A stretch of 64,000 bases of DNA from Mobula hypostoma (lineage: Eukaryota): positions 167,216,001-167,280,000 of the forward strand of contig NC_086097.1 in assembly GCF_963921235.1 (NCBI RefSeq), in the 5' to 3' direction. The notes under the pieces were generated by a model. That model searched no databases and was not told the DNA's origin. It saw only the letters and a list, made by a program, of their open reading frames with translations. Both the position numbers and the translations under genes were made by a program. Shown in pieces: positions 38,046 to 50,800 of this stretch (position 1 is its first letter; the number at the start of each line of letters is the position of its first letter).

Positions 38046-38171
38046 TTTGTTAACCAAAGCAACTATTATTTCTGTCAAAATTACTGCTGAGTGCAATGGT
38101 GGAAAATGAGTAAAACCCACAGTATACATATTTTCATCTCACAAGTTACACTGAACGCAGAGCCTGGAAAG

Positions 38172-38642
38172 CTATATACCCACTACTATATACTCACCAA
38201 CTACTATATACCCACTACTATATACTCACCAACTACTATATACCAACTACTATATACTCACCAACTACTATATACCAACTACTATATACTCACCAACTAC
38301 TATATACCAACTACTATATACTCACCAACTACTATATACCAACTACTATATACTCACCAACTACTATATACCAACTACTATATACTCACCAACTACTATA
38401 TACCCACTACTATATACTCACCAACTACTATATACCAACTACTATATACTCACCAACTACTATATACCAACTACTATATACTCACCAACTACTATATACC
38501 AACTACTATATACTCACCAACTACTATATACCAACTACTATATACTCACCAACTACTATATACCCACTACTATATACTCACCAACTACTATATACCAACT
38601 ACTATATACTCACCAACTACTATATACCAACTACTATATACT
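38172..38642. repeat. Minisatellite: alternating 14-bp and 18-bp units (ACTACTATATACCA / ACTACTATATACTCACCA), 32-bp period
   Basis: Direct tandem repetition is visible in the sequence. It creates the spurious repetitive ORF 38091-38648. Confidence 0.95.
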
Positions 38643-39049
38643 GAATAAAAGTGCTGAGACAAATAAAGTACAATGCCACTTTCTTAAATGGAAGGATTCT
38701 GCATTGGGTATTTCTCATCCAGTCACAGTAATAGTTGAGAGAGCTCAGAATCAGTTTAAAGAAATAAAATATAAAGTATTACTTTGCAACAAAATTTTAA
38801 ATTATAAAAGCAGTGTAGGATGCCAACAAAAGCAGCCACATAACTGCTCGGTTTTAGCTGCTCCAATGTCCTTCAAATCTGAGTTTCACCCTTAATGATT
38901 TGGTAAGAATAGTAGGTTGAACAAAATCCAGATATCTTCCTTTTAAGTGGAACTGGGAGACATTGAAGCAGACACCAACCTTAGATCTATGCCTCGAGTG
39001 TTCAACCAAAATGTTATATTCTGATCACAGAAGAATAAAGGGTTTAACA

Positions 39050-40440: not shown

Positions 40441-43193
40441 ATCCCAGCAATCAATCTGATTCTTCCAAGTAATTTTATTCATCAGTAGGAGATATCAGAA
40501 GCAAATTTATCCAAAAGGTAATTGAGTAGTCTATTTCTCTCATTCTGCCTGAAGTTTTGCATAAAATCTGAATTGCATTCCTAATTTGCAATAAATAGGC
40601 AAACATTGTTCATGTGGACAATGCAATTTATTTGCGTTAGTAAGACACACCAAGCAAAGATGAATAATTTCTACAATACAAAACGATTTGCTCTCGTATG
40701 ATAATATCGATTTCTATTTTTTTAAAGAAAATTTAATAGCTGCCAATATGCTAAATCTTTGTTAAGTATAATGAAAAACTAAACAAGAACTAGGATAAAC
40801 AACTTTAGTAACTGAACTGTTAATGAAGCTTGAACAAGAATTGAAAGCCAAAACTTACACAGCCATGCAATGTATTCCTTGTGAGTTTCCTCCATATTCC
40901 TACATCCGTTTTTGCTAGCCAATCTGACCAAATGTTTCTTGCCTGAATAGGTTCAGGCAATTTCAAAAATTGTGAAATCTGTTAAGAATTAATATTTCAA
41001 TCCAGAGCCACAAGATTGTGAATGAATCAAAGTTTAAGACGGCATGTCTTTGTATTATAAGGGCAGGCTTGTATGCATCATCCCCTTCATATCCCCAAAC
41101 ACTTTACAGTCAATGAGGTCCTTTGAAGTGCAGTCACTGTTGCAAAGCAGGAAACCCAGTAGGCTATTTTGCACTGCAACCTCCAACATCAGATAAAGAC
41201 CAGATAATTTGAAGAACATTTTTTTAATGTTAAAAGATTTTCATTTGAGATAGCAGACACTGGATTCTTGGAAGAGGATAAAGTAGGGAGCCAAGATTTT
41301 GAGTTGTGACCTACTGCCTAAAGAAAAACCACTTAAGGTCAGCCAACATGTACAAGTGTTTTCAGAAATTCACTATAACATGCAGTTTCCTCATGCATGT
41401 GCTACATGTCAATACATAAGGATTTAATTTAAAGTGGTGCCACTAGTTTTAAAGTCTTATCTTTACAATGAAAATCTCTCTCAAGCTGTACAAGACCATG
41501 GATAGTTTTTTTTTTAAAAAATCAGGTTCTGGTTTCACCTATCTGACTGAATAACAATTGATTCCACTTAGAATTCTGTTTCTAAGCTATGAATTCAAGA
41601 AAATTGCTGAACTAATGCATAATAAGTAAATTCAGACTCCAATAAATACACTGCTGTATTTCTAGACTAATTATCATTCTACGCAGATATTCGCCCAACA
41701 GTAGGAAAATTCCATGTTCACAATAAACATGCGTTCTCATTCACTGATTGCCCAAATGCGACATGTATGTAAACATTGAAATCACACCATCATGTATTAT
41801 GTTACTATGATTGTGTCACCCTGGACAATGGAATGAAAACTACTGGTTGGACTCAGTAGCCAAGAAATGTCAAGTGCTCTGAGGTTCTAATACACCCTTT
41901 AAGAAGAAAGAGTTAATTCTGCATCACAAATTGCATGGAATGCAAATGAAAATGGCTCTGCAATGTTAGGTTCACACTAGGGTTTTGTCAACATTGACAC
42001 CAATCTATTCTCTCATTATTAAAATCATTGTAAGTATGGGGAATGAAAGAGAAAGAACAATGGGAAAAAGCGTGAATTAGAATCAACAAAAAGCAAAAGC
42101 CTGATGAAAGTCATCAAGTTGAATCGTAATTCCTTTTCATTCTCCCTCCACAGATGCTGCCTAACCTGCTGAGTATCTCCAACATTTTATGAATTAGTCA
42201 AATTGGTTCCAAAAGGCAGCAGAGATGGAAAGAAAGAATGGATTAAGAAAGATAAAAGACAATTAAACATGAAATATGTATTAACTAAAACATGCTAATT
42301 GTTTTATAGCACACAAGGGTGCAGGTAATATGAGAAGTGAAAAATTTTTTGGTTTTTAGCAAGGTTAGTGTAGAGTGATATGTTGTGCAATTCCAAAACA
42401 CAAAATTAATTGTAGAAAAGACGGGAGCCCAAGAGATGCAAATCTTAGCTTGTTTGTTTCCCACTTTAAGCAAGGTGCACATGTTTCTCATGGTAGAGTT
42501 AGACATATGCAATTCACTTCTTTTTGCATATAACCCATATGTATTATTTAAACAAAGAATGTTTAATCAACTACATATTTACAAGATTACTCAAATATTA
42601 CTGGAATATTAAATAGACAACACTCCTCTCTGTAATCTCAATGACTCTCCATACAGCTTTAGACCACGTGGACAACACAAAAACCTACGTCAGGATGCTG
42701 TTCATTGACTATAGCTCAGCATTTAATACCATCATTCCCGCAATCCTGATTGAGAAGTTGCAGAACCTGGGCCTCTGTACCTCCCTCTGCAATTGGATCC
42801 TTGACTTCCTAACAGGAAGATCACAATCTGTGCGGATTGGTGATATCGTATCCTCCTGGCTGACGATTAACACTGGCTCACCTCAGGGGTGTATGCTTAG
42901 CCCACTGCTCTACTCTCTTTCTACACATGACTGTGTGGCTAGGCATAGCTCAAATACCATCTACAAATTTGCTGATGATACAAGGTGGTGACGAGAGGGT
43001 GTACAGGAATGAGATATCTCAACTAGTAGAGTGGTGCCACAGCAACAACCTGGCACTCAATGTCAGTAAGACGAAAGAGCTGATGCTGGACTTCAGGAAG
43101 GGCAAGATGAAGGAACACATACAAATACTCATAGAGGGATCAGAAGTAGACAGAGTGAGCAGTTTCGAGTTCCTGGGTGTCAAGATCTCTGAG

Positions 43194-43266
43194 TATTTCC
43201 TGAGGTGCAACTGTAATGAAAACCAATTTCCCCCGGGATCAATAAAATATGACTATGACTATGACT
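43194..43266 (+). mobile_element. Very short 3' fragment of the (ATGACT)n-tailed Rex-type LINE
   Basis: GGTGCAACTGTAA..CCCCCGGGATCAATAAAATATGACTATGACTATGACT interrupts the host LINE frame. The same tail occurs at 44769-44825 (minus). Confidence 0.75.
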
Positions 43267-43695
43267 AACCTGGTCCTGACATATCAATGTAGTTATAAAG
43301 GCGGCAAGACAGTGACTATGCTTTATTGGGAGTTTGAAGAGATTTGGCATGTCAACAAATACTCTCAAAAACTTCTATAGTTGTACTGTGGAGAGCATTC
43401 TGACAGACTGCATCACTGTCTGGTATGGAGGGGCTACTGCACAGGACCGAAAGAAGCTGCAGAAGGTTGTAAATCTAGTCAGATCCACCTTTGGTACTAG
43501 CCTACAAAGTACCCAAGACATCTTCAGGGAGCGGTCCTTTAGAAAGGCAGTGTCCATTATTAAGGACCTCCAACACCCAGGGCATGCCCTTTTCTTACTG
43601 TTACAATCAGGCCTGAAGGCACATACTCAGCAATTCAGGAACAGTTTCTTCCCCTCTGCCATCCGATTCCTAAATGCACATTGAATCTTTGGACA

Positions 43696-43918
43696 TGTTG
43701 TGTATGTGGCCTGGTTACATAACAATGTTATTAATAAAAACGCTGGAGATGGGAGCTAAGTTTCATTGATCTTTACTGGCAGAATCCAAACTCGGCACAC
43801 ACGTACAGTTCAATACGTGCCTAATAGCGCGTGCTCAATATGCGCCTAATATTGCATGCAATGACGTGTTACTGGAACATAAAACAGTCCCTTATTATAA
43901 TGTAGGCTCTACAGTACA
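43696..43918 (-). repeat. 3' LTR of the SUDS3-carrying Gypsy
   Basis: + strand TGTTGTGTATGTGGC...CAGTACA, homologous to 47636-47828. Adjacent to the PPT. Confidence 0.9.
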
Positions 43919-43931
43919 CTTCTTCCCTTTT
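43919..43931 (-). other. Polypurine tract
   Basis: The minus strand reads AAAAGGGAAGAAG immediately before the 3' LTR. Confidence 0.8.
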
Positions 43932-44488
43932 ATTTTAATAGTGTATCAACTGCTTTTTAACTGGGGCATTATGCTAAACAAATATGCTTACCCTTAACAT
44001 ACAAACGCCAACCATTTGTTTACTTAGCAACTTAATAATATCAAAGGTTATCACAAAGTAATGTAATAATATCAAATTATAACAAGCCTTTTTTTTTAAC
44101 TTTTGGTCTAAGACCCATTTATACCAAGTCTCGTGGGGGGGCGGGGGGGTTCTTCTCTAGATTGTCCGGCACTGAAGCAAATAGGTCTTCACTCTATTGT
44201 TTGGAATACATTGAACAATCCACAAATTGGCAGGTTCCAGCCATAAAGAGTAGTCACCTTCATCTTGCAAAGGTGATGAAAGCAAAGTGAAATCCGTGAA
44301 GAGGTGAATGTTATTCTTAAAAATATGTACAATAATCAAATCTGAGATGGCATTGGAAAGTGTCTTCAAATAGTGTGTTCTTCAGTCTGTCAATAAACTT
44401 GTTTGTTTTAATACAGATTTCCATATAAAAGTCATGAACAGTTGACCTCTGAGCATAGGGAGTTAAGAAGATATGCACCTCCAACTTG

Positions 44489-46063
44489 CTAAGAGTTCGA
44501 GGCAGATCGCCTCCGTATAATGAAGACTTCTCTGTGCAGCTGTCCTAGATATATACGCATCTTTGTGCTATCGCTTGTCTTCCTTACCCATATCTCATTT
44601 GTTCCAATTGAGCTAATTACACAGCCAACCTTCGTATTCTCCTTAGATTCCAAATAGACAGTCTGACCTTTATGATACCACCTCTTATCGTAATATAACT
44701 TTCCATTTTATATTCGTGCTTCATATCTTTGTGCTGGTGATTCAGCAGGAGTGCTGCGAAGATACCATTGTCATAGTCATACTTTATTGATCCTGGGGGA
44801 AGTTGGTTCTCGTTACAGTTGCACCATAAATAATAAATAGTAATAGAACCATAAATAGTTAAATAGTAATATGCAAATTATGCCAGTAAATTATGAAGTA
44901 AGTCCAGGACCAGCCTATCGGCTCAGGGTGTCTGACCCTCCAAGGGAGGAATTGCAAAGTTTGATGGCCACAGGCAGGAATGACTTCCTATGACGCTCTG
45001 TGCTGCATCTCGGAGGAATGAGTCTCTGGCTGAATGTACTCCTGTGCCCACCCAGTACATTATGTAGTGGATGGGAGACATTGACCAAGATGGCATGCAG
45101 CTTGGACAGCATCCTCTTTTCAGACACCACCGTCAGAGAGTCCAGTTCCATCCCCACAACATCACTGGCCTTACGAATGAGTTTGTTGAGTCTGTTGGTG
45201 TCTGCTACCCTCAGCCTGCTGCCCCAGCACACAAAAGCAAACATGATAGCACTAGCCACCACAGACTCATAGAACATCCTCAGCATCGTCCGGCAGATGT
45301 TAAAGGACTTCAGTCTCCTCAGGAAATAGAAACGGCTCTGACCCTTCTTGAAGACAGCCTCAGTGACCAGTCCAGTTTATTGTTAATCTCAGGAGATGCT
45401 CAGGAGAAGACGGAGATGCTAGTCTTTTCGGAAATTTAAGCTTATTGAGAGTTGGAAGATCTTCCATTATCTGTTCACCTGTAAACAAGTAACTTAACTG
45501 CACAGGTGCAGGTTTTCGTCTTTTGTCCGTAATTGGAACAGGGTCATTAGGTCTCCTCCTTAGTTTCCTAGTCATTATTGGCTTTACCTCCATAGTATCT
45601 CCTGAGTTCCATTGTTAGCCTCTCATTCTCAATCATCTTTTTCTTTTCTTACACTCATTTTTTTTAAATCTTCAAATTCCTTCACTGCTGCTTTCTTCTC
45701 TTTAATATAATTCCCTTCCACTTTTTCTGTCTCCAGTTGCAGAAAAAGCTCTGCATTTCGTATTCTTTCCTTGTATTGTTGATCTAGTTTCTTCATCCTT
45801 TTCTGATACTCCTGCAAAGTGCCTTCCTGTAACTGCTGTAGCTGCTTTTTGAGAGATGTCAATTTCTCCTGGTACCTCTGTTCTTTTACTTCCAGGTAGT
45901 CTTCATCATCCTGCTTATTGGAAATATCTGTCTTACTTGCATCCTCTGTATCTTCATCCAAGTCGCGGCCATGGATACTGCGTTCGGTCTCATCGTCGAC
46001 GCTGTCTAGCTCCTCCTCGTCGTTGTAATAGTCAACAATGGGTGAGAGGAGCGCTGCGGACAT
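44489..46063 (-). pseudogene. SUDS3: Processed (intronless) copy of Sin3 histone deacetylase corepressor complex component SDS3, disabled
   Basis: N-terminal ORF 45629-46063 ([61 protein letters not shown]). Middle 45390-45593 ([44 protein letters not shown]). C-terminus about 44489-44757, translated by hand: [87 protein letters not shown]. All are colinear with vertebrate SDS3 as I recall it. Lesions: deletion/frameshifts at about 45595-45665, a LINE insertion and one in-frame TAA. Confidence 0.95.
44769..45390 (-). mobile_element. 5'-truncated Rex1/Babar-type LINE inserted into the SUDS3 copy
   Basis: ORF 44915-45286 (MFYESVVASAIMFAFVCWG..SHPLH..STERHRKSFLPVAIKL). AATAAAGT(ATGACT)n tail at 44769-44790. 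It splits SDS3 between PEHL and STPAES. Confidence 0.88.
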
Positions 46064-46066
46064 CTT

Positions 46067-46378
46067 TTACCCCGAGCTGCCCTCCTTTGTTGACACATCT
46101 AGTGCCTTGATGGTGTGCCAATCCAACTGGATTTTCCTGAGCCATTCATGTCCCAGCAATGGTGGTCCTCCATTTTTCAGTACATAGAGGTTCCGCTGCT
46201 GTGCTTTGTCTCCGTAGGTCACTGTCACTTTATTTTTACCTTTGGGATGCACTTTCTGTCCTGTGTAATTCTTTAGCAGTAGTTTAGTTCGGTTCAGAGG
46301 TATGTGAGAAAACAGTCGTTTGTAGTAGTGTACAGAGAACACTGTTAAAACTGAGCCTGTGTCCAACTCCATTTCCAC
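46067..46378 (-). CDS. Gypsy aspartic protease (retropepsin) domain, same frame as gag
   Basis: MELDTGS catalytic motif, LKNYTG, and GPPLLGHEWLRKIQLDW. Separated from gag by a single TGA at 46379-46381. Confidence 0.85.
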   Translation of the reverse strand: MEMELDTGSVLTVFSVHYYKRLFSHIPLNRTKLLLKNYTGQKVHPKGKNKVTVTYGDKAQQRNLYVLKNGGPPLLGHEWLRKIQLDWHTIKALDVSTKEGSSG

Positions 46379-47332
46379 TCATATTACAGTGATCCACATT
46401 ACTCTTCGATCATCTATCTCTTTCATGCTGTGACGTTGCAGACAAGACAATTCACTTTCGTCTGAGTCATTTTCATCAAAACTGCTTTCTTCCCTTTTGT
46501 GTGCATTGTTGTGTTTTCTTTTCTGGGGTTTCTTGTTTCTCTGTATTTTGTCCCTTTTCTGCTGTTTATTAGCTTTGCATACTCTGCCAGTGTGGCCCTG
46601 TTTGCCACAGTCTCTGCATTCTTTGTCTTTAAACCAACAGTCATCAGGGTCATGTGACATGTTCCCACAACAGTAACATTTCTTTCCTTCATTTCTGTTC
46701 AGTGACATTTTATTCATAGCATATTCCAAAGATTTCTGTTGTATCTCTGAAGCACCCTGTGCTGCTGTTTCCAATGATATTGCAATGTTCAGTGCCTTCT
46801 CTAATGTAAGGTCTCTTTCACCCAGGATCTTCTTCTGTGTAGTTTTACAGTGCGTGCCACACACTAACCTGCCCCTCAATGCATCCGATAGACCAGCTCC
46901 AAATTGACAATGTTCTGATAATTTGCACAATTCAGCACAATATTCAGAAATGCTTTCATTTTTGCTCTGCTTGTGTTTGTGAAATTTAAATCTTTCAGCA
47001 ATGGCCAGTGGTTTGGGGTTTGAATGCTGTTGGAGAGTGTCTACTATTTGCTTGAACATTTTGTCAGCTGGCTTTTCAGGGGTTAACAAGCTCCGTAGCA
47101 GCCCGTATGTTTTTGCTCCCATAATACAGAGTAAGATTCTGGCTTTCTTTTCATCATTAACACCGTTAGCCTCACAATATAACCCCACTCTCTCAATGTA
47201 AGTTGCCCAGTCTTCACTACCACTGTCAAATGCTGTAATGGTTCCAATCATCGCCATCTTTGTTATGTTAATTTGGCCCCATTTTCCCCTTGTTTTCTTT
47301 TTGACTTCACGTGTCCTTTTTGCTAGCACCAT
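46379..47332 (-). CDS. Gypsy Gag (open, 317 aa; likely start at the MAMIG Met near 47257)
   Basis: EDWATYIER..LLRSLLTPEKP..PKPLAIAERFKF..ESISEY..LRGRLVCG. Two CCHC zinc knuckles, CYCCGNMSHDPDDC and CRDCGKQGHTGRVC. Confidence 0.9.
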   Translation of the reverse strand: MVLAKRTREVKKKTRGKWGQINITKMAMIGTITAFDSGSEDWATYIERVGLYCEANGVNDEKKARILLCIMGAKTYGLLRSLLTPEKPADKMFKQIVDTLQQHSNPKPLAIAERFKFHKHKQSKNESISEYCAELCKLSEHCQFGAGLSDALRGRLVCGTHCKTTQKKILGERDLTLEKALNIAISLETAAQGASEIQQKSLEYAMNKMSLNRNEGKKCYCCGNMSHDPDDCWFKDKECRDCGKQGHTGRVCKANKQQKRDKIQRNKKPQKRKHNNAHKREESSFDENDSDESELSCLQRHSMKEIDDRRVMWITVI

Positions 47333-47620
47333 GAGTGCACTCTGTCTAAATGTGTGTGTCGCTCCTTTTTATCTCCCTTCTAGGGCAGGCAGACCCTCAG
47401 TCCCCAAGGGTCAGCGCCGGCTGTGGTCTCGCCTGGACGTGCTGCGGCTTCGACTGTGTCTCTTGGTCTCCCAACGTTCCTGACCCCGGCTGTGCTCCCA
47501 CTTCCTTTCGGACTCGCGGCCTCACTCTGCCTCCTTCTCCCGCTCTTTGGCTTGCGCTCTTCCTCCAAGTGCCGTTATCAACTAAAACCCAGCATTCTGA
47601 TAAAAGATGTACGTTCATGA

Positions 47621-47635
47621 ACCTTGCCACCAATT
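47621..47635 (-). other. Primer-binding site
   Basis: The minus strand reads AATTGGTGGCAAGGT directly after the 5' LTR end. TGG is complementary to the tRNA CCA end. The priming tRNA is not identified. Confidence 0.7.
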
Positions 47636-47828
47636 TGTTGTGTATGTGGCATGGTTACATAACGATGCTATTAATAAAAACGCTGGAGATGGGAGCTAAG
47701 TTTCATGGTTCTTTACTAGCAGAATCCGAACTCGGCACACACGTACAGATCACTACGCGCCTAATAGCGCATACAACGAGTTACTAAAACAAAGTAGTCC
47801 CTTATTATAATGTAGGATATATGGTACA
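47636..47828 (-). repeat. 5' LTR of the SUDS3-carrying Gypsy
   Basis: + strand TGTTGTGTATGTGGC...TGGTACA, homologous to 43696-43918. Confidence 0.9.
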
Positions 47829-50800
47829 GGACACTACCTCACTTTTTTTTTAAATATACAGTATTTCTGTTTCAACACGTTTTTTTAAATCTATTCAATA
47901 TATGCAATTGATTTATTTATTAGTTTTTATTTTATTTATTATTATTATCTCTGCTAGATTATGTATTGCATTGAACTGCTTCTGCTAAGTTAACAAATTG
48001 CACATCACATGCCGGTGATAATAAACCTGATTCTGATTATAAACTCTAATTCAATAGAGAGTGCATCTCAACTATATGCACGGTATATAATACAACTATA
48101 TACAGACATCCACAGTACAGTAAATTTAAAATTGTCCCAGTCAAAACTAAAGATTTAATCACTGTGGAGGCTTTCTAACTCTTGTGGGATAACGTCTTGC
48201 CTGACAAGGAAGGTCACTCTGCTCGGCAGGTGAGACCTATAGCTGTTCTGGGGTAGGAGTTGACTGAGACGGCAGTAAATGGTTTTGATAGTGCAGGCCG
48301 CCTTCCTTCTCTAACAATTGAATCTGCTCTCCTCAACTGATCGATGTGTCTGATACCACTTGGAGACAACACAATCTCCACTAGACAGAAGAGTAGTTGA
48401 GTTCTATCCTTAATCTCTCGGAACACCCACTTTTGATCACCTCTGTAGTTCTTTGCCAGGACTGCTTGTCCAGGAGTGAAACACCAAACCTTCTGGAATG
48501 AGGAGGCTTCAATTTGTCTCAGCTGTTTGTCCTGTATACTGCTTCTGAGACTGGGTTTGAAGAGACACAAGCTTGAACACAAGGGACGAACCAGGATCAG
48601 CACAGCTGGTGTGTTATTGGTTATAGAAAGTGCTGCACTGTGCAAGGAGGAAATTGGTGAGATCCTGATTCAGTGTCTGTGTAGTGTGTTCTGCTGACAT
48701 TGTTCATAATGTGTTCTTTAGACTCTGAACAAACCTTTCCACAAAGCATTTGTAGCTTGGTGGTATGGTGCAGATACAATATTTCTTATTCCATTCATTC
48801 TCAGGAATGACTGAAACTGCTCTGCAACAAACTGTGGTCCATTTTCACCGATATAAGTGTTCTGGAACAGTAGAAAAGGATGCAGTGGAGGCTATTTTTT
48901 GGTTTCCACTTGGATCATCACTGCTGTAATAGGAAGACTTTTGACTTCCATTAGGGAGAATACATCAAGGGGTGTATCTTTTTTTTTGTAATTTTTTCAG
49001 TTATTTCCTTTGCCAAGGAAAAACGGGACAATCCATCAACATTAGCATGATTAGCCATCCTCTTGAATTCAATCTTGTAACTGCGTCCTCCAAGAAACAA
49101 AGCCCATCTCTGCATTCATGCTGCTGCTGTTAGTGGAACAGCCTCTGTGGATTGAAAATGGACAATAGCAGTTGATGAACAGTAATGAAGGTAAACAGTC
49201 TCCCACACAAGTACTGGTTGAAACGTTTTACACCACAAACCAGAAGCAAAGCCTCTCTGTCAATCTGTGTGTAGTTATTCCCTGCAGTGGTAAGGGAATG
49301 TTAAGCAAAGACTACCGGGCGTTCACTTCCATCACTAATAACAATGTGACATGATAGCACATATATCATACGGCCAGGCATCACAGGCAAGCTTCACTCA
49401 ACAAGGCAAATCATGATGACAGTGTCCGACACCACCATTTCCTTTATCTTTTAGAAAGCCACCTCACACTGCTTTGTTCATTGCCATTTCTTCCCGATCT
49501 GCAATAGTGCGTAACCAGGTTTGACAGGAACCTGTTAAAGCACTTGACAAATCCTAAAATGGACTGGAACTGCAACATATACTTTGGCCTTGGAGCATCC
49601 ATCGTTGCTTTAATTTTCTCAGCACACTTGTGTAATCCTTATGTGTCAATAGTATGACCACAGTGGTGCTTGGTTTAAAGAATTCACACTTGTCACATTG
49701 TGCTTTGAGCCCATAATCTTCTAATCTTTTTAACACTGTCTTGAGATTTTAGAAATGTTCCTTGTCATCCTTACCTGTAACAATGATGTTATCCAGGTAA
49801 CACTGAGTGCCTGGACAGCCTTGCAGCACCTGGTCCACAGCTTTCTGTCAGAGTGAAGGTGCAGATGCTTCTTCAAAAATAAGCCCATTATAGTGATAAA
49901 GCCCTTTCTGAGTGCTTCTGGTAAGAAACACTTTGGACTCTTCTTCCATCTCCATCTGTAGGTAAACCTCAGTCATCGACTTTGCTGAAGTGCTTTCCTC
50001 CAGAAAGGTTTGCAAAAATATCCTTGATCCAGGGCGGAGGTCTATCTTCAGTACTGGTTGATGGTGACCTCAAAATCACCACAGATTCTGACAGAACCAT
50101 TCTTCCTGGCTGCTGGGAACACTAGCGTGCCCATGGACTCTACTCAACCTTGGAAAGAATTCCATAGCTTCCAAGCGATCTAGCTCACCGGTTACTTTGT
50201 CACAGATGGTATAAGGAACCAGATGGGCTTAGGAGAACTTAGGTGTGGCATTTTCATTTAACACCATTTTACCCTTGATATGTTTGAGATTTCTAATGCC
50301 AACCTTGAACACTGCTGTCACATCATCCAGTACCCTTTTTAATTAGCTTTCAGTTGACTTGCAAGGGATAGGACGTGCAAATGGTGGATGGATCTCTGAT
50401 CAAGTTCTAGTTGGATTAGCTACTCATGACCCCAAATGGTTGGCCCTCCTGCTTTTACCACATTTCAGTTCAGTGTGGCTTGTTGGTTGTTACAAATGTC
50501 ATTGCCATTGTAGTTATCTTTTCTCCAGTACAAGTTCTTAGTTGGATATCCATAGGCTTCAGTTTAGCATCCGTGAAATGCCGCTCAAATTCATTTTGGG
50601 AAATGACTGGAACAGCCAACCCAGTTTCCATTTTAATTCATTTGCTGTTCACTTCTGGTGTAAGCCATATTGCTTGATAGTTTTCACATTGTAAATTTAA
50701 TGCTCTTTTTGAAACTGCAACTTCTATCTTTTCCTCTTCCCTGTGCAGTCCATTTCCCAACATGCTCTTTGTACGTGTAATAGTAGGAAAATCTCTGCAA

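Follow-up and report, generated by a model that had tools for sequence, protein, structure and literature searches.

How the spliced coding sequence (CDS) of a host gene, SUDS3, came to lie inside a Gypsy long terminal repeat (LTR) retrotransposon, and whether the resulting chimera multiplied as a unit, are the questions raised by an element on the minus strand of a 64,000-nt stretch of the Mobula hypostoma genome (contig NC_086097.1, positions 167,216,001 to 167,280,000; this whole stretch is called the window, and coordinates without a contig or locus name are positions in it). A preliminary description of this DNA proposed that SUDS3 had taken the place of pol and that the chimera had been mobilized as a non-autonomous family, and the latter proposal is borne out here by a junction found at hundreds of loci with different target-site duplications (TSDs) and by the existence of a pol-retaining partner. 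The account that we consider probable as a whole is one of capture by template switching, mobilization in trans, a passenger cargo, and a family that is now extinct and evolves neutrally.

Family size and insertion history

A query of 331 nt across the junction between the protease (PR) region and SUDS3 returned 659 candidates and matched end to end at all 40 of the places scored, one of which is the window, the other 39 being at 91-93% identity. Genome-wide, an 18-letter pattern for this junction has 205 exact matches, against 0 for the control, and the same site continuing into reverse transcriptase (RT), as in pol-retaining copies, has 123, again against 0. The two patterns recover 11 of the 27 chimeric copies that other queries had yielded and 4 of 10 non-SUDS3 copies; calibrated in this way, the totals come to ~500 chimeric and ~300 pol-retaining sites, rough figures in view of the small calibration sets. 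The recurrence of one junction in many insertions, together with a contemporary pol-coding partner, marks this as a non-autonomous family.

Among 67 loci examined, 3 have no protease match and 22 have both LTRs resolved, 21 of these complete elements being chimeric and 1 pol-retaining. Each of the 22 has a TSD of its own, 5 bp long, exact in 16 and with one mismatch in 6. Their LTRs are of the TG...CA type, 21 of the 22 ending in CA. Segmental duplication is excluded as the source of the copies at these 22 loci. Two further copies on C68, L061 and L062, are near-identical over SUDS3 and are probably a segmental duplication or an assembly duplicate rather than separate insertions, and L138 and L147 are cargo-free internal-deletion derivatives of the same element.

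The LTR pairs of the complete elements differ by a median Kimura two-parameter (K2P) distance of 0.10. In 9 of the 22, the 5' and 3' LTRs belong to unlike length classes (~198 versus ~223 nt), in both directions (the window, with 47636-47828 versus 43696-43918, and L048, L049, L050, L055, L058, L065, L096, and L169), a mixture that could be due to strand transfer between molecules or to later conversion and that weakens LTR dating. At the only measured shark rate that we found, 7e-10 per generation (from the relevant part of PMC10587355), the median K2P would correspond to about 7e7 generations, which is not credible, and we claim no date for the burst. A tree of 71 copies and the host gene over SUDS3 codons 1-124, from which copies with less than 330 nt in that stretch were left out, is star-like, with end branches of ~0.04 and 2 of 69 inner branches supported, and every one of 34 chimeric copies has at least one stop or frameshift in the stretch from gag through SUDS3. 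The family is the product of one old burst; it is now extinct, and its copies are decaying neutrally. SDS3-like proteins annotated in both M. hypostoma and M. birostris carry the 24-nt deletion typical of the family (see below), and the PR/SUDS3 junction is bridged by contigs of runs X19 and X20 (organisms K and H); the family is therefore common to several species.

Donor gene, partner element, and switch points

The host SUDS3 gene (C78:8380296-8439661) lies about 1 Mb from an SRRM-family gene and has 12 exons over 59 kb, with AT-AC ends at intron 7 (exon boundaries read by eye). It was singled out by an exon-6 peptide; a query made of the last exon and untranslated region (UTR) did not discriminate. 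All 12 exons are contiguous in the element, with the AT-AC intron removed, and the donor was therefore a mature mRNA.

When the 30 best protease matches were fetched, 20 were found to run on into SUDS3 and 10 into an RT linker, 8 of the latter having RT sequence and 2 being internally deleted. Both RT and RNase H of pol-retaining copies are located after PR and were confirmed by Pfam. The closest database relatives of this partner are ~1310-amino-acid, K02A2.6-like Gypsy proteins of fishes, each a single open reading frame (ORF) with an integrase (75-79% identity), the partner's own integrase being known from its tail alone. The RT-RNase H region of one partner copy (L165:3505-4176) shows 75-79% identity to teleost elements and 70% to a skate element, a pattern that may be a sign of horizontal transfer. 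Between 34 chimeric and 5 pol-retaining copies there is no near-fixed gag-PR difference. The primer binding site (PBS) in its commonest form agrees with the 3' terminus of tRNA-Ser(GCT) genes, tRNA-Ser being the call at 3 of 4 loci, and the polypurine tract (PPT) is conserved among copies. The element is a single-ORF Ty3/Gypsy of the K02A2.6-like type; it probably belongs to the Mag group, judging by the single ORF and two CCHC knuckles, which we take to be Mag traits, and by a partial likeness of the LTR ends. Of the end motifs of the Mag C elements, which have short LTRs (TGTNATRT / AYANAACA; PMC3601003, relevant section), the 3' one is matched and the 5' one partly matched by the ~200-nt LTR.

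Searching with the junction and aligning its copies to host SUDS3 and to the partner, as the preliminary description had proposed, mapped the switch points. At the 5' switch, the 7-nt word GGGCAGC is common to the partner and the SUDS3 5' UTR. There are two 3' switches, a short and a long form, both leading back into the integrase tail, and the short one falls at the common 7-nt word GACAGAC. Together with the joins to two further genes considered below, microhomology amounts to 7, 7, 11, and 7 nt at four junctions (5', short 3', SUDS3/YBX1, and SUDS3/RNF213). Poly(A) is absent at both 3' forms, no internal TSD is present at either junction, and the host 3' UTR extends beyond both captured 3' ends.

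A family-wide deletion of 24 nt in SUDS3 exon 6 removes 8 amino acids, host residues 138-145, from the coiled-coil region of Sds3; among 150 scored matches to the exon-6 peptide, this stretch is whole in the host gene only. A candidate pre-deletion copy (L085/L098) was rejected, as it has the derived states of the family and a secondary insert, and no polarization was gained from it. A contig of run X3 (RNA by guess) that crosses the junction has the host-type 24 nt and is possibly an assembly join; it was not used.

Further captured genes

One subfamily switches at SUDS3 codon ~123, through an 11-nt common word, into a Y-box gene, YBX1 (on C75), of which the 5' UTR and exons 1-7 are present in spliced form, with a YB-1 cold-shock domain match at E 2e-37; near full-length YBX matches number 28 of 42. 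The distance from the SUDS3 ATG to the YBX ATG is divisible by three in 5 of 10 measured copies (447 nt in three of them), and the other 5 have private indels. In L036, L037, L050, L052, L053, L055, L067, and L068, at least six spliced exons of RNF213 (host gene at C68:48816889-48833773; PDB match at E 5e-16) are joined at a 7-nt common word, antisense to the element, and these joins end the reading frame within a few codons. A sample of 84 copies, biased by the queries used, comprises 45 plain copies with the SUDS3 C-terminus, 15 with YBX, 19 with RNF213 but without YBX, and 5 unclassed. YBX1 and/or RNF213 pieces are thus present in 34 of the 84, mostly replacing the SUDS3 C-terminus.

Reading frame and selection on the cargo

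SUDS3 is in frame with gag-PR, the modal distance from the gag ATG to the SUDS3 ATG being 402 codons, and natural open frames cross the junction at two loci (560 and 501 codons). In the 30 nt that lead up to the SUDS3 ATG, 36 of 40 copies keep the gag-PR frame without a stop, 2 have a 1-nt deletion, and 2, the window and L035, have the same four-base stop-containing variant in different flanks; a template carrying a stop therefore still spread. Stops common to several copies also occur in gag-PR, in up to 44% of copies at one codon, but they are CpG-decay hotspots and not a fixed break.

Private changes are neutral, with a ratio of nonsynonymous to synonymous types of 1.0-1.1 in SUDS3 and 0.8-0.9 in gag-PR, and for SUDS3 and YBX the changes common to several copies are close to neutral as well. 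There is some constraint on common gag-PR variants (36 nonsynonymous to 30 synonymous, p 0.007; p 0.07 without CpG sites). Near-fixed differences between host and family number 1 synonymous and 1 nonsynonymous in YBX, and in the UTR they number 10 of 340, equal to the private divergence of 3.3%, which argues for a short stem and against a long selected one. The SUDS3 C-terminus has been lost in several subfamilies. These observations make it likely that the cargo protein was a passenger, with selection at most for an open frame as such.

The window copy

The preliminary description was right about the anatomy of the window copy as regards its LTR pair, the TSD GGACA, the PPT, gag, the protease motif, an intronless SUDS3, and the lack of RT and RNase H, neither of which was found inside the element. 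The TSD reads TGTCC on the minus strand and GGACA on the plus strand (5' copy at 47829..47833, 3' copy at 43691..43695). The element lies within a repeat of long interspersed nuclear element (LINE) type, and because TGTCC is present once in uninterrupted copies of that repeat (L066 and L179), the duplication is a true one. The 5' LTR (47636..47828) has TG...CA ends and, at 193 nt, is of the short length class, and the 3' LTR (43696..43918) is of the long class, with 223 nt. The cis signals had all been thought to be retained, which holds for the LTRs and the PPT (43919..43931) but not for the PBS (47622..47632), which is decayed relative to its siblings, among which the commonest form can pair with the 3' end of tRNA-Ser(GCT).

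Gag (46382..47257) has two CCHC knuckles and a weak, sub-cut-off match to DUF7083; its 292 codons are open, as had been described, but a premature stop at its end (46379-46381) precedes the protease motif. The aspartic protease region, with the start of the PR-RT linker (46083..46378), has a DTG motif, aligns to pol-retaining copies, and gives no Pfam match. Beyond the 5' switch point, the GGGCAGC word shared with the pol-retaining element (46076..46082), the 5' part of the captured mRNA (45394..46075) holds a short piece of 5' UTR, the ATG at 46063, and spliced exons 1-10, and the 3' part (44159..44764) holds exons 10-12 and ~340 nt of 3' UTR in the long form, without poly(A). This SUDS3 sequence has 94% identity to the host gene in spliced form and matches Pfam Sds3 at E 5.8e-8. 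It does run from the ATG to the end of the CDS, as the term full-length had implied, yet it falls short of full length by the family-wide 24-nt deletion, and it is broken by a stop (45629-45631), frameshifting indels, and an insert of ~630 nt (44765..45393). This insert, which the preliminary description does not mention, is the 3' part of a LINE, has a short tandem tail, was inserted later, and is unique to the window copy among its siblings. An ALKBH8_N Pfam match on this insert was set aside, since we take the model to be LINE-derived rather than indicative of a gene. In the resumed element sequence (43932..44158), which also includes the 3' untranslated region, a few terminal codons of the integrase tail are left before the PPT, so that the integrase is not entirely gone, contrary to what had been stated. 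With its stops, frameshifts, and LINE insert, the window copy is dead.

Around the element, LINE RT remnants flank it at 42617-43722 on the plus strand, and one flanking LINE remnant shares its terminal 3' tail with the LINE fragment within SUDS3 (a 60-nt inverted match). Just upstream, 48160-49640 on the minus strand holds a decayed RNase H and integrase remnant (weak rve match) of another Gypsy element, separate from the SUDS3 one, and a low-complexity tandem array at ~38100-38700 yields long repetitive ORFs.

Discussion

In the scenario that we favor, a single-ORF Gypsy element would have co-packaged spliced SUDS3 mRNA, and RT would have switched templates at short common words, so that SUDS3 replaced RT, RNase H, and integrase. 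The chimera, having kept its LTRs, PBS, PPT, and gag-PR, reached about 500 sites, presumably copied in trans by a pol-coding sibling in one burst, and further switches would have produced the second 3' junction, the 24-nt deletion, and the YBX1 and RNF213 captures. The kept frame may have aided the RNA, by making it more stable or by letting its own Gag package it, instead of yielding a useful SUDS3 protein.

Several findings weigh against this scenario. The long-form 3' switch, that of the window copy, has no common word. The antisense RNF213 piece is not what a plain minus-strand switch onto an mRNA would give, which is a sense insert; it requires either that a retrocopy was transcribed in antisense or that the switch took place while the plus strand was being made. 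Near-fixed SUDS3 differences between host and family are 12 synonymous to 3 nonsynonymous (unpolarized), the 12 being about twice the synonymous number predicted by UTR divergence; selection on the host gene alone would also give this skew, which is thus not proof of selection on the cargo. Finally, the three length changes that spread (5' junction, 24-nt deletion, and YBX1 junction) all keep the frame, with a chance of about 1 in 27, counted post hoc. Template switching nevertheless remains the way in which the junctions, themselves directly observed, would have arisen. A LINE-made processed pseudogene of SUDS3 that landed in a Gypsy copy, deleted its pol, and was then amplified would suit the abundance of LINEs in the window and the lack of microhomology at the long-form 3' junction, but the junctions have neither poly(A) nor an internal TSD, the host 3' UTR continues past both captured ends, and 7-nt common words mark the 5' and short-form 3' switches, which makes such an origin very improbable. 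The simpler case that the preliminary description had set against its own proposal, a LINE-type insertion with a junction unique to this locus, is excluded by the recurrence of the junction and the absence of poly(A).

The role of the cargo can be weighed in the same way. Sds3 forms dimers by way of a coiled coil and is a binding partner of Sin3 and HDACs (PMC8800102, in part), and YB-1 supports HIV replication (PMC6040738, in part). A Gag-PR-SUDS3 polyprotein with the 8-residue deletion in that coiled-coil region could then have dimerized with host SDS3 and blunted Sin3/HDAC silencing, with YBX1 acting as an RNA chaperone; the in-frame fusion, the open frames across the junction, and the excess of chimeric over pol-retaining junctions (205 versus 123) would agree with this. 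On the other hand, changes common between copies show no purifying selection in SUDS3 or YBX1, the C-terminus was lost in several subfamilies, the stop-carrying template gave at least two insertions, and an anti-silencing benefit would go to every copy alike. Moreover, non-autonomous elements that are shorter than their helpers are often more numerous than these even when they carry nothing useful. A useful cargo seems unlikely to us. Unlikely as well is the broader idea that a vertebrate Gypsy element made a host corepressor subunit its own gene, Gag-PR-SUDS3 with the coiled-coil deletion being a decoy against Sin3/HDAC silencing that allowed the defective element to overtake its helper, and that the family went on sampling host mRNAs (YBX1, RNF213), as a gag-onc-like shuttle; if it were true, other top-ranked "retrocopied" shark and ray genes would be cargo of similar elements. 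A part in silencing evasion is a tentative possibility at best, and the weight that the preliminary description implicitly gave to the cargo being a silencing gene finds no selection signal behind it. The domestication of some copies as working SUDS3 retrogenes might be suggested by the annotation of several as SDS3-like proteins (287-480 amino acids) in two Mobula species and by one locus that keeps an open frame through the SUDS3 C-terminus, but ~500 copies at ~5% divergence would leave some open frames by chance and the annotated proteins carry scattered radical changes, and we hold it to be highly improbable. No run registered as RNA contains the junction, a negative that counts neither way. 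A protein search centered on the junction (2 matches of 38 candidates) found no annotated fusion protein.

The mechanism itself is known; the unusual aspects here are the number of copies, the fusion of a whole CDS to gag, the succession of captures, and the antisense spliced piece. Acutely transforming retroviruses have a helper-dependent genome in which a host cDNA, in frame with gag, replaces pol; the Mobula family differs from these gag-onc viruses in that no envelope is seen, retrotransposition is in the germline, and the cargo brings no evident benefit. The sections of Tan et al. (2016; PMC5131818) on LTR-mediated retroposition describe host mRNA between the halves of LTR elements, with microsimilarity at the switches, no poly(A), multi-gene chimeras, and predicted secondary rounds of retroposition, all as here. 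Those retrocopies are young, mostly partial, and of few copies, whereas in Mobula a whole CDS in frame with gag-PR reaches about 500 copies and exceeds its helper. Maize Bs1, as summarized in the same source, is likewise an LTR element with pieces of three unlinked host mRNAs and the same switch points in all copies, but it has one to five copies and partial exons, in contrast to hundreds of copies and subfamilies with differing cargo. CrocERV29 (KIT ligand) and CrocERV31 (nectin3) are amplified vertebrate LTR elements with spliced host CDSs and short in-frame indels (PMC4299795, relevant sections). They are endogenous retroviruses of nine and six copies that keep pol and carry the host sequence as a separate ORF reported to be under purifying selection; the Mobula family is a Gypsy one, with pol lost, a gag fusion, and no selection detected. 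Abrusan et al. (2013; PMC3597677) surveyed host fragments in transposable element consensus sequences, and neither the main text of that survey, as far as consulted, nor that of the manta and devil ray genome preprint mentions SUDS3 or SDS3. We found no description of a SUDS3-carrying Gypsy family in the literature; Repbase and Dfam, which may hold an entry, were outside this search. In a 2026 preprint (10.64898/2026.06.26.734816), SUDS3 is one of the top five genes of cartilaginous fishes by number of retrocopies; such numbers are attributed there to the activity of LINEs and to expression in the germline, the relevant section offering no LTR explanation.

Our results offer an LTR-based explanation for this high rank, because in the M. 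hypostoma genome the SUDS3 copies go back to a few captures followed by element amplification, and they also explain spurious "SDS3-like" gene models in ray annotations. They provide a case of LTR-mediated gene capture at family scale in a vertebrate, in which successive captures are recorded in the subfamilies. Had the cargo protein mattered, an animal retrotransposon would have made use of a silencing gene captured from its host. For MIPOL1, SDF2L1, SLU7, and ZNF276, and for amphibian PIWIL2 and DND1, the same origin is now directly testable.

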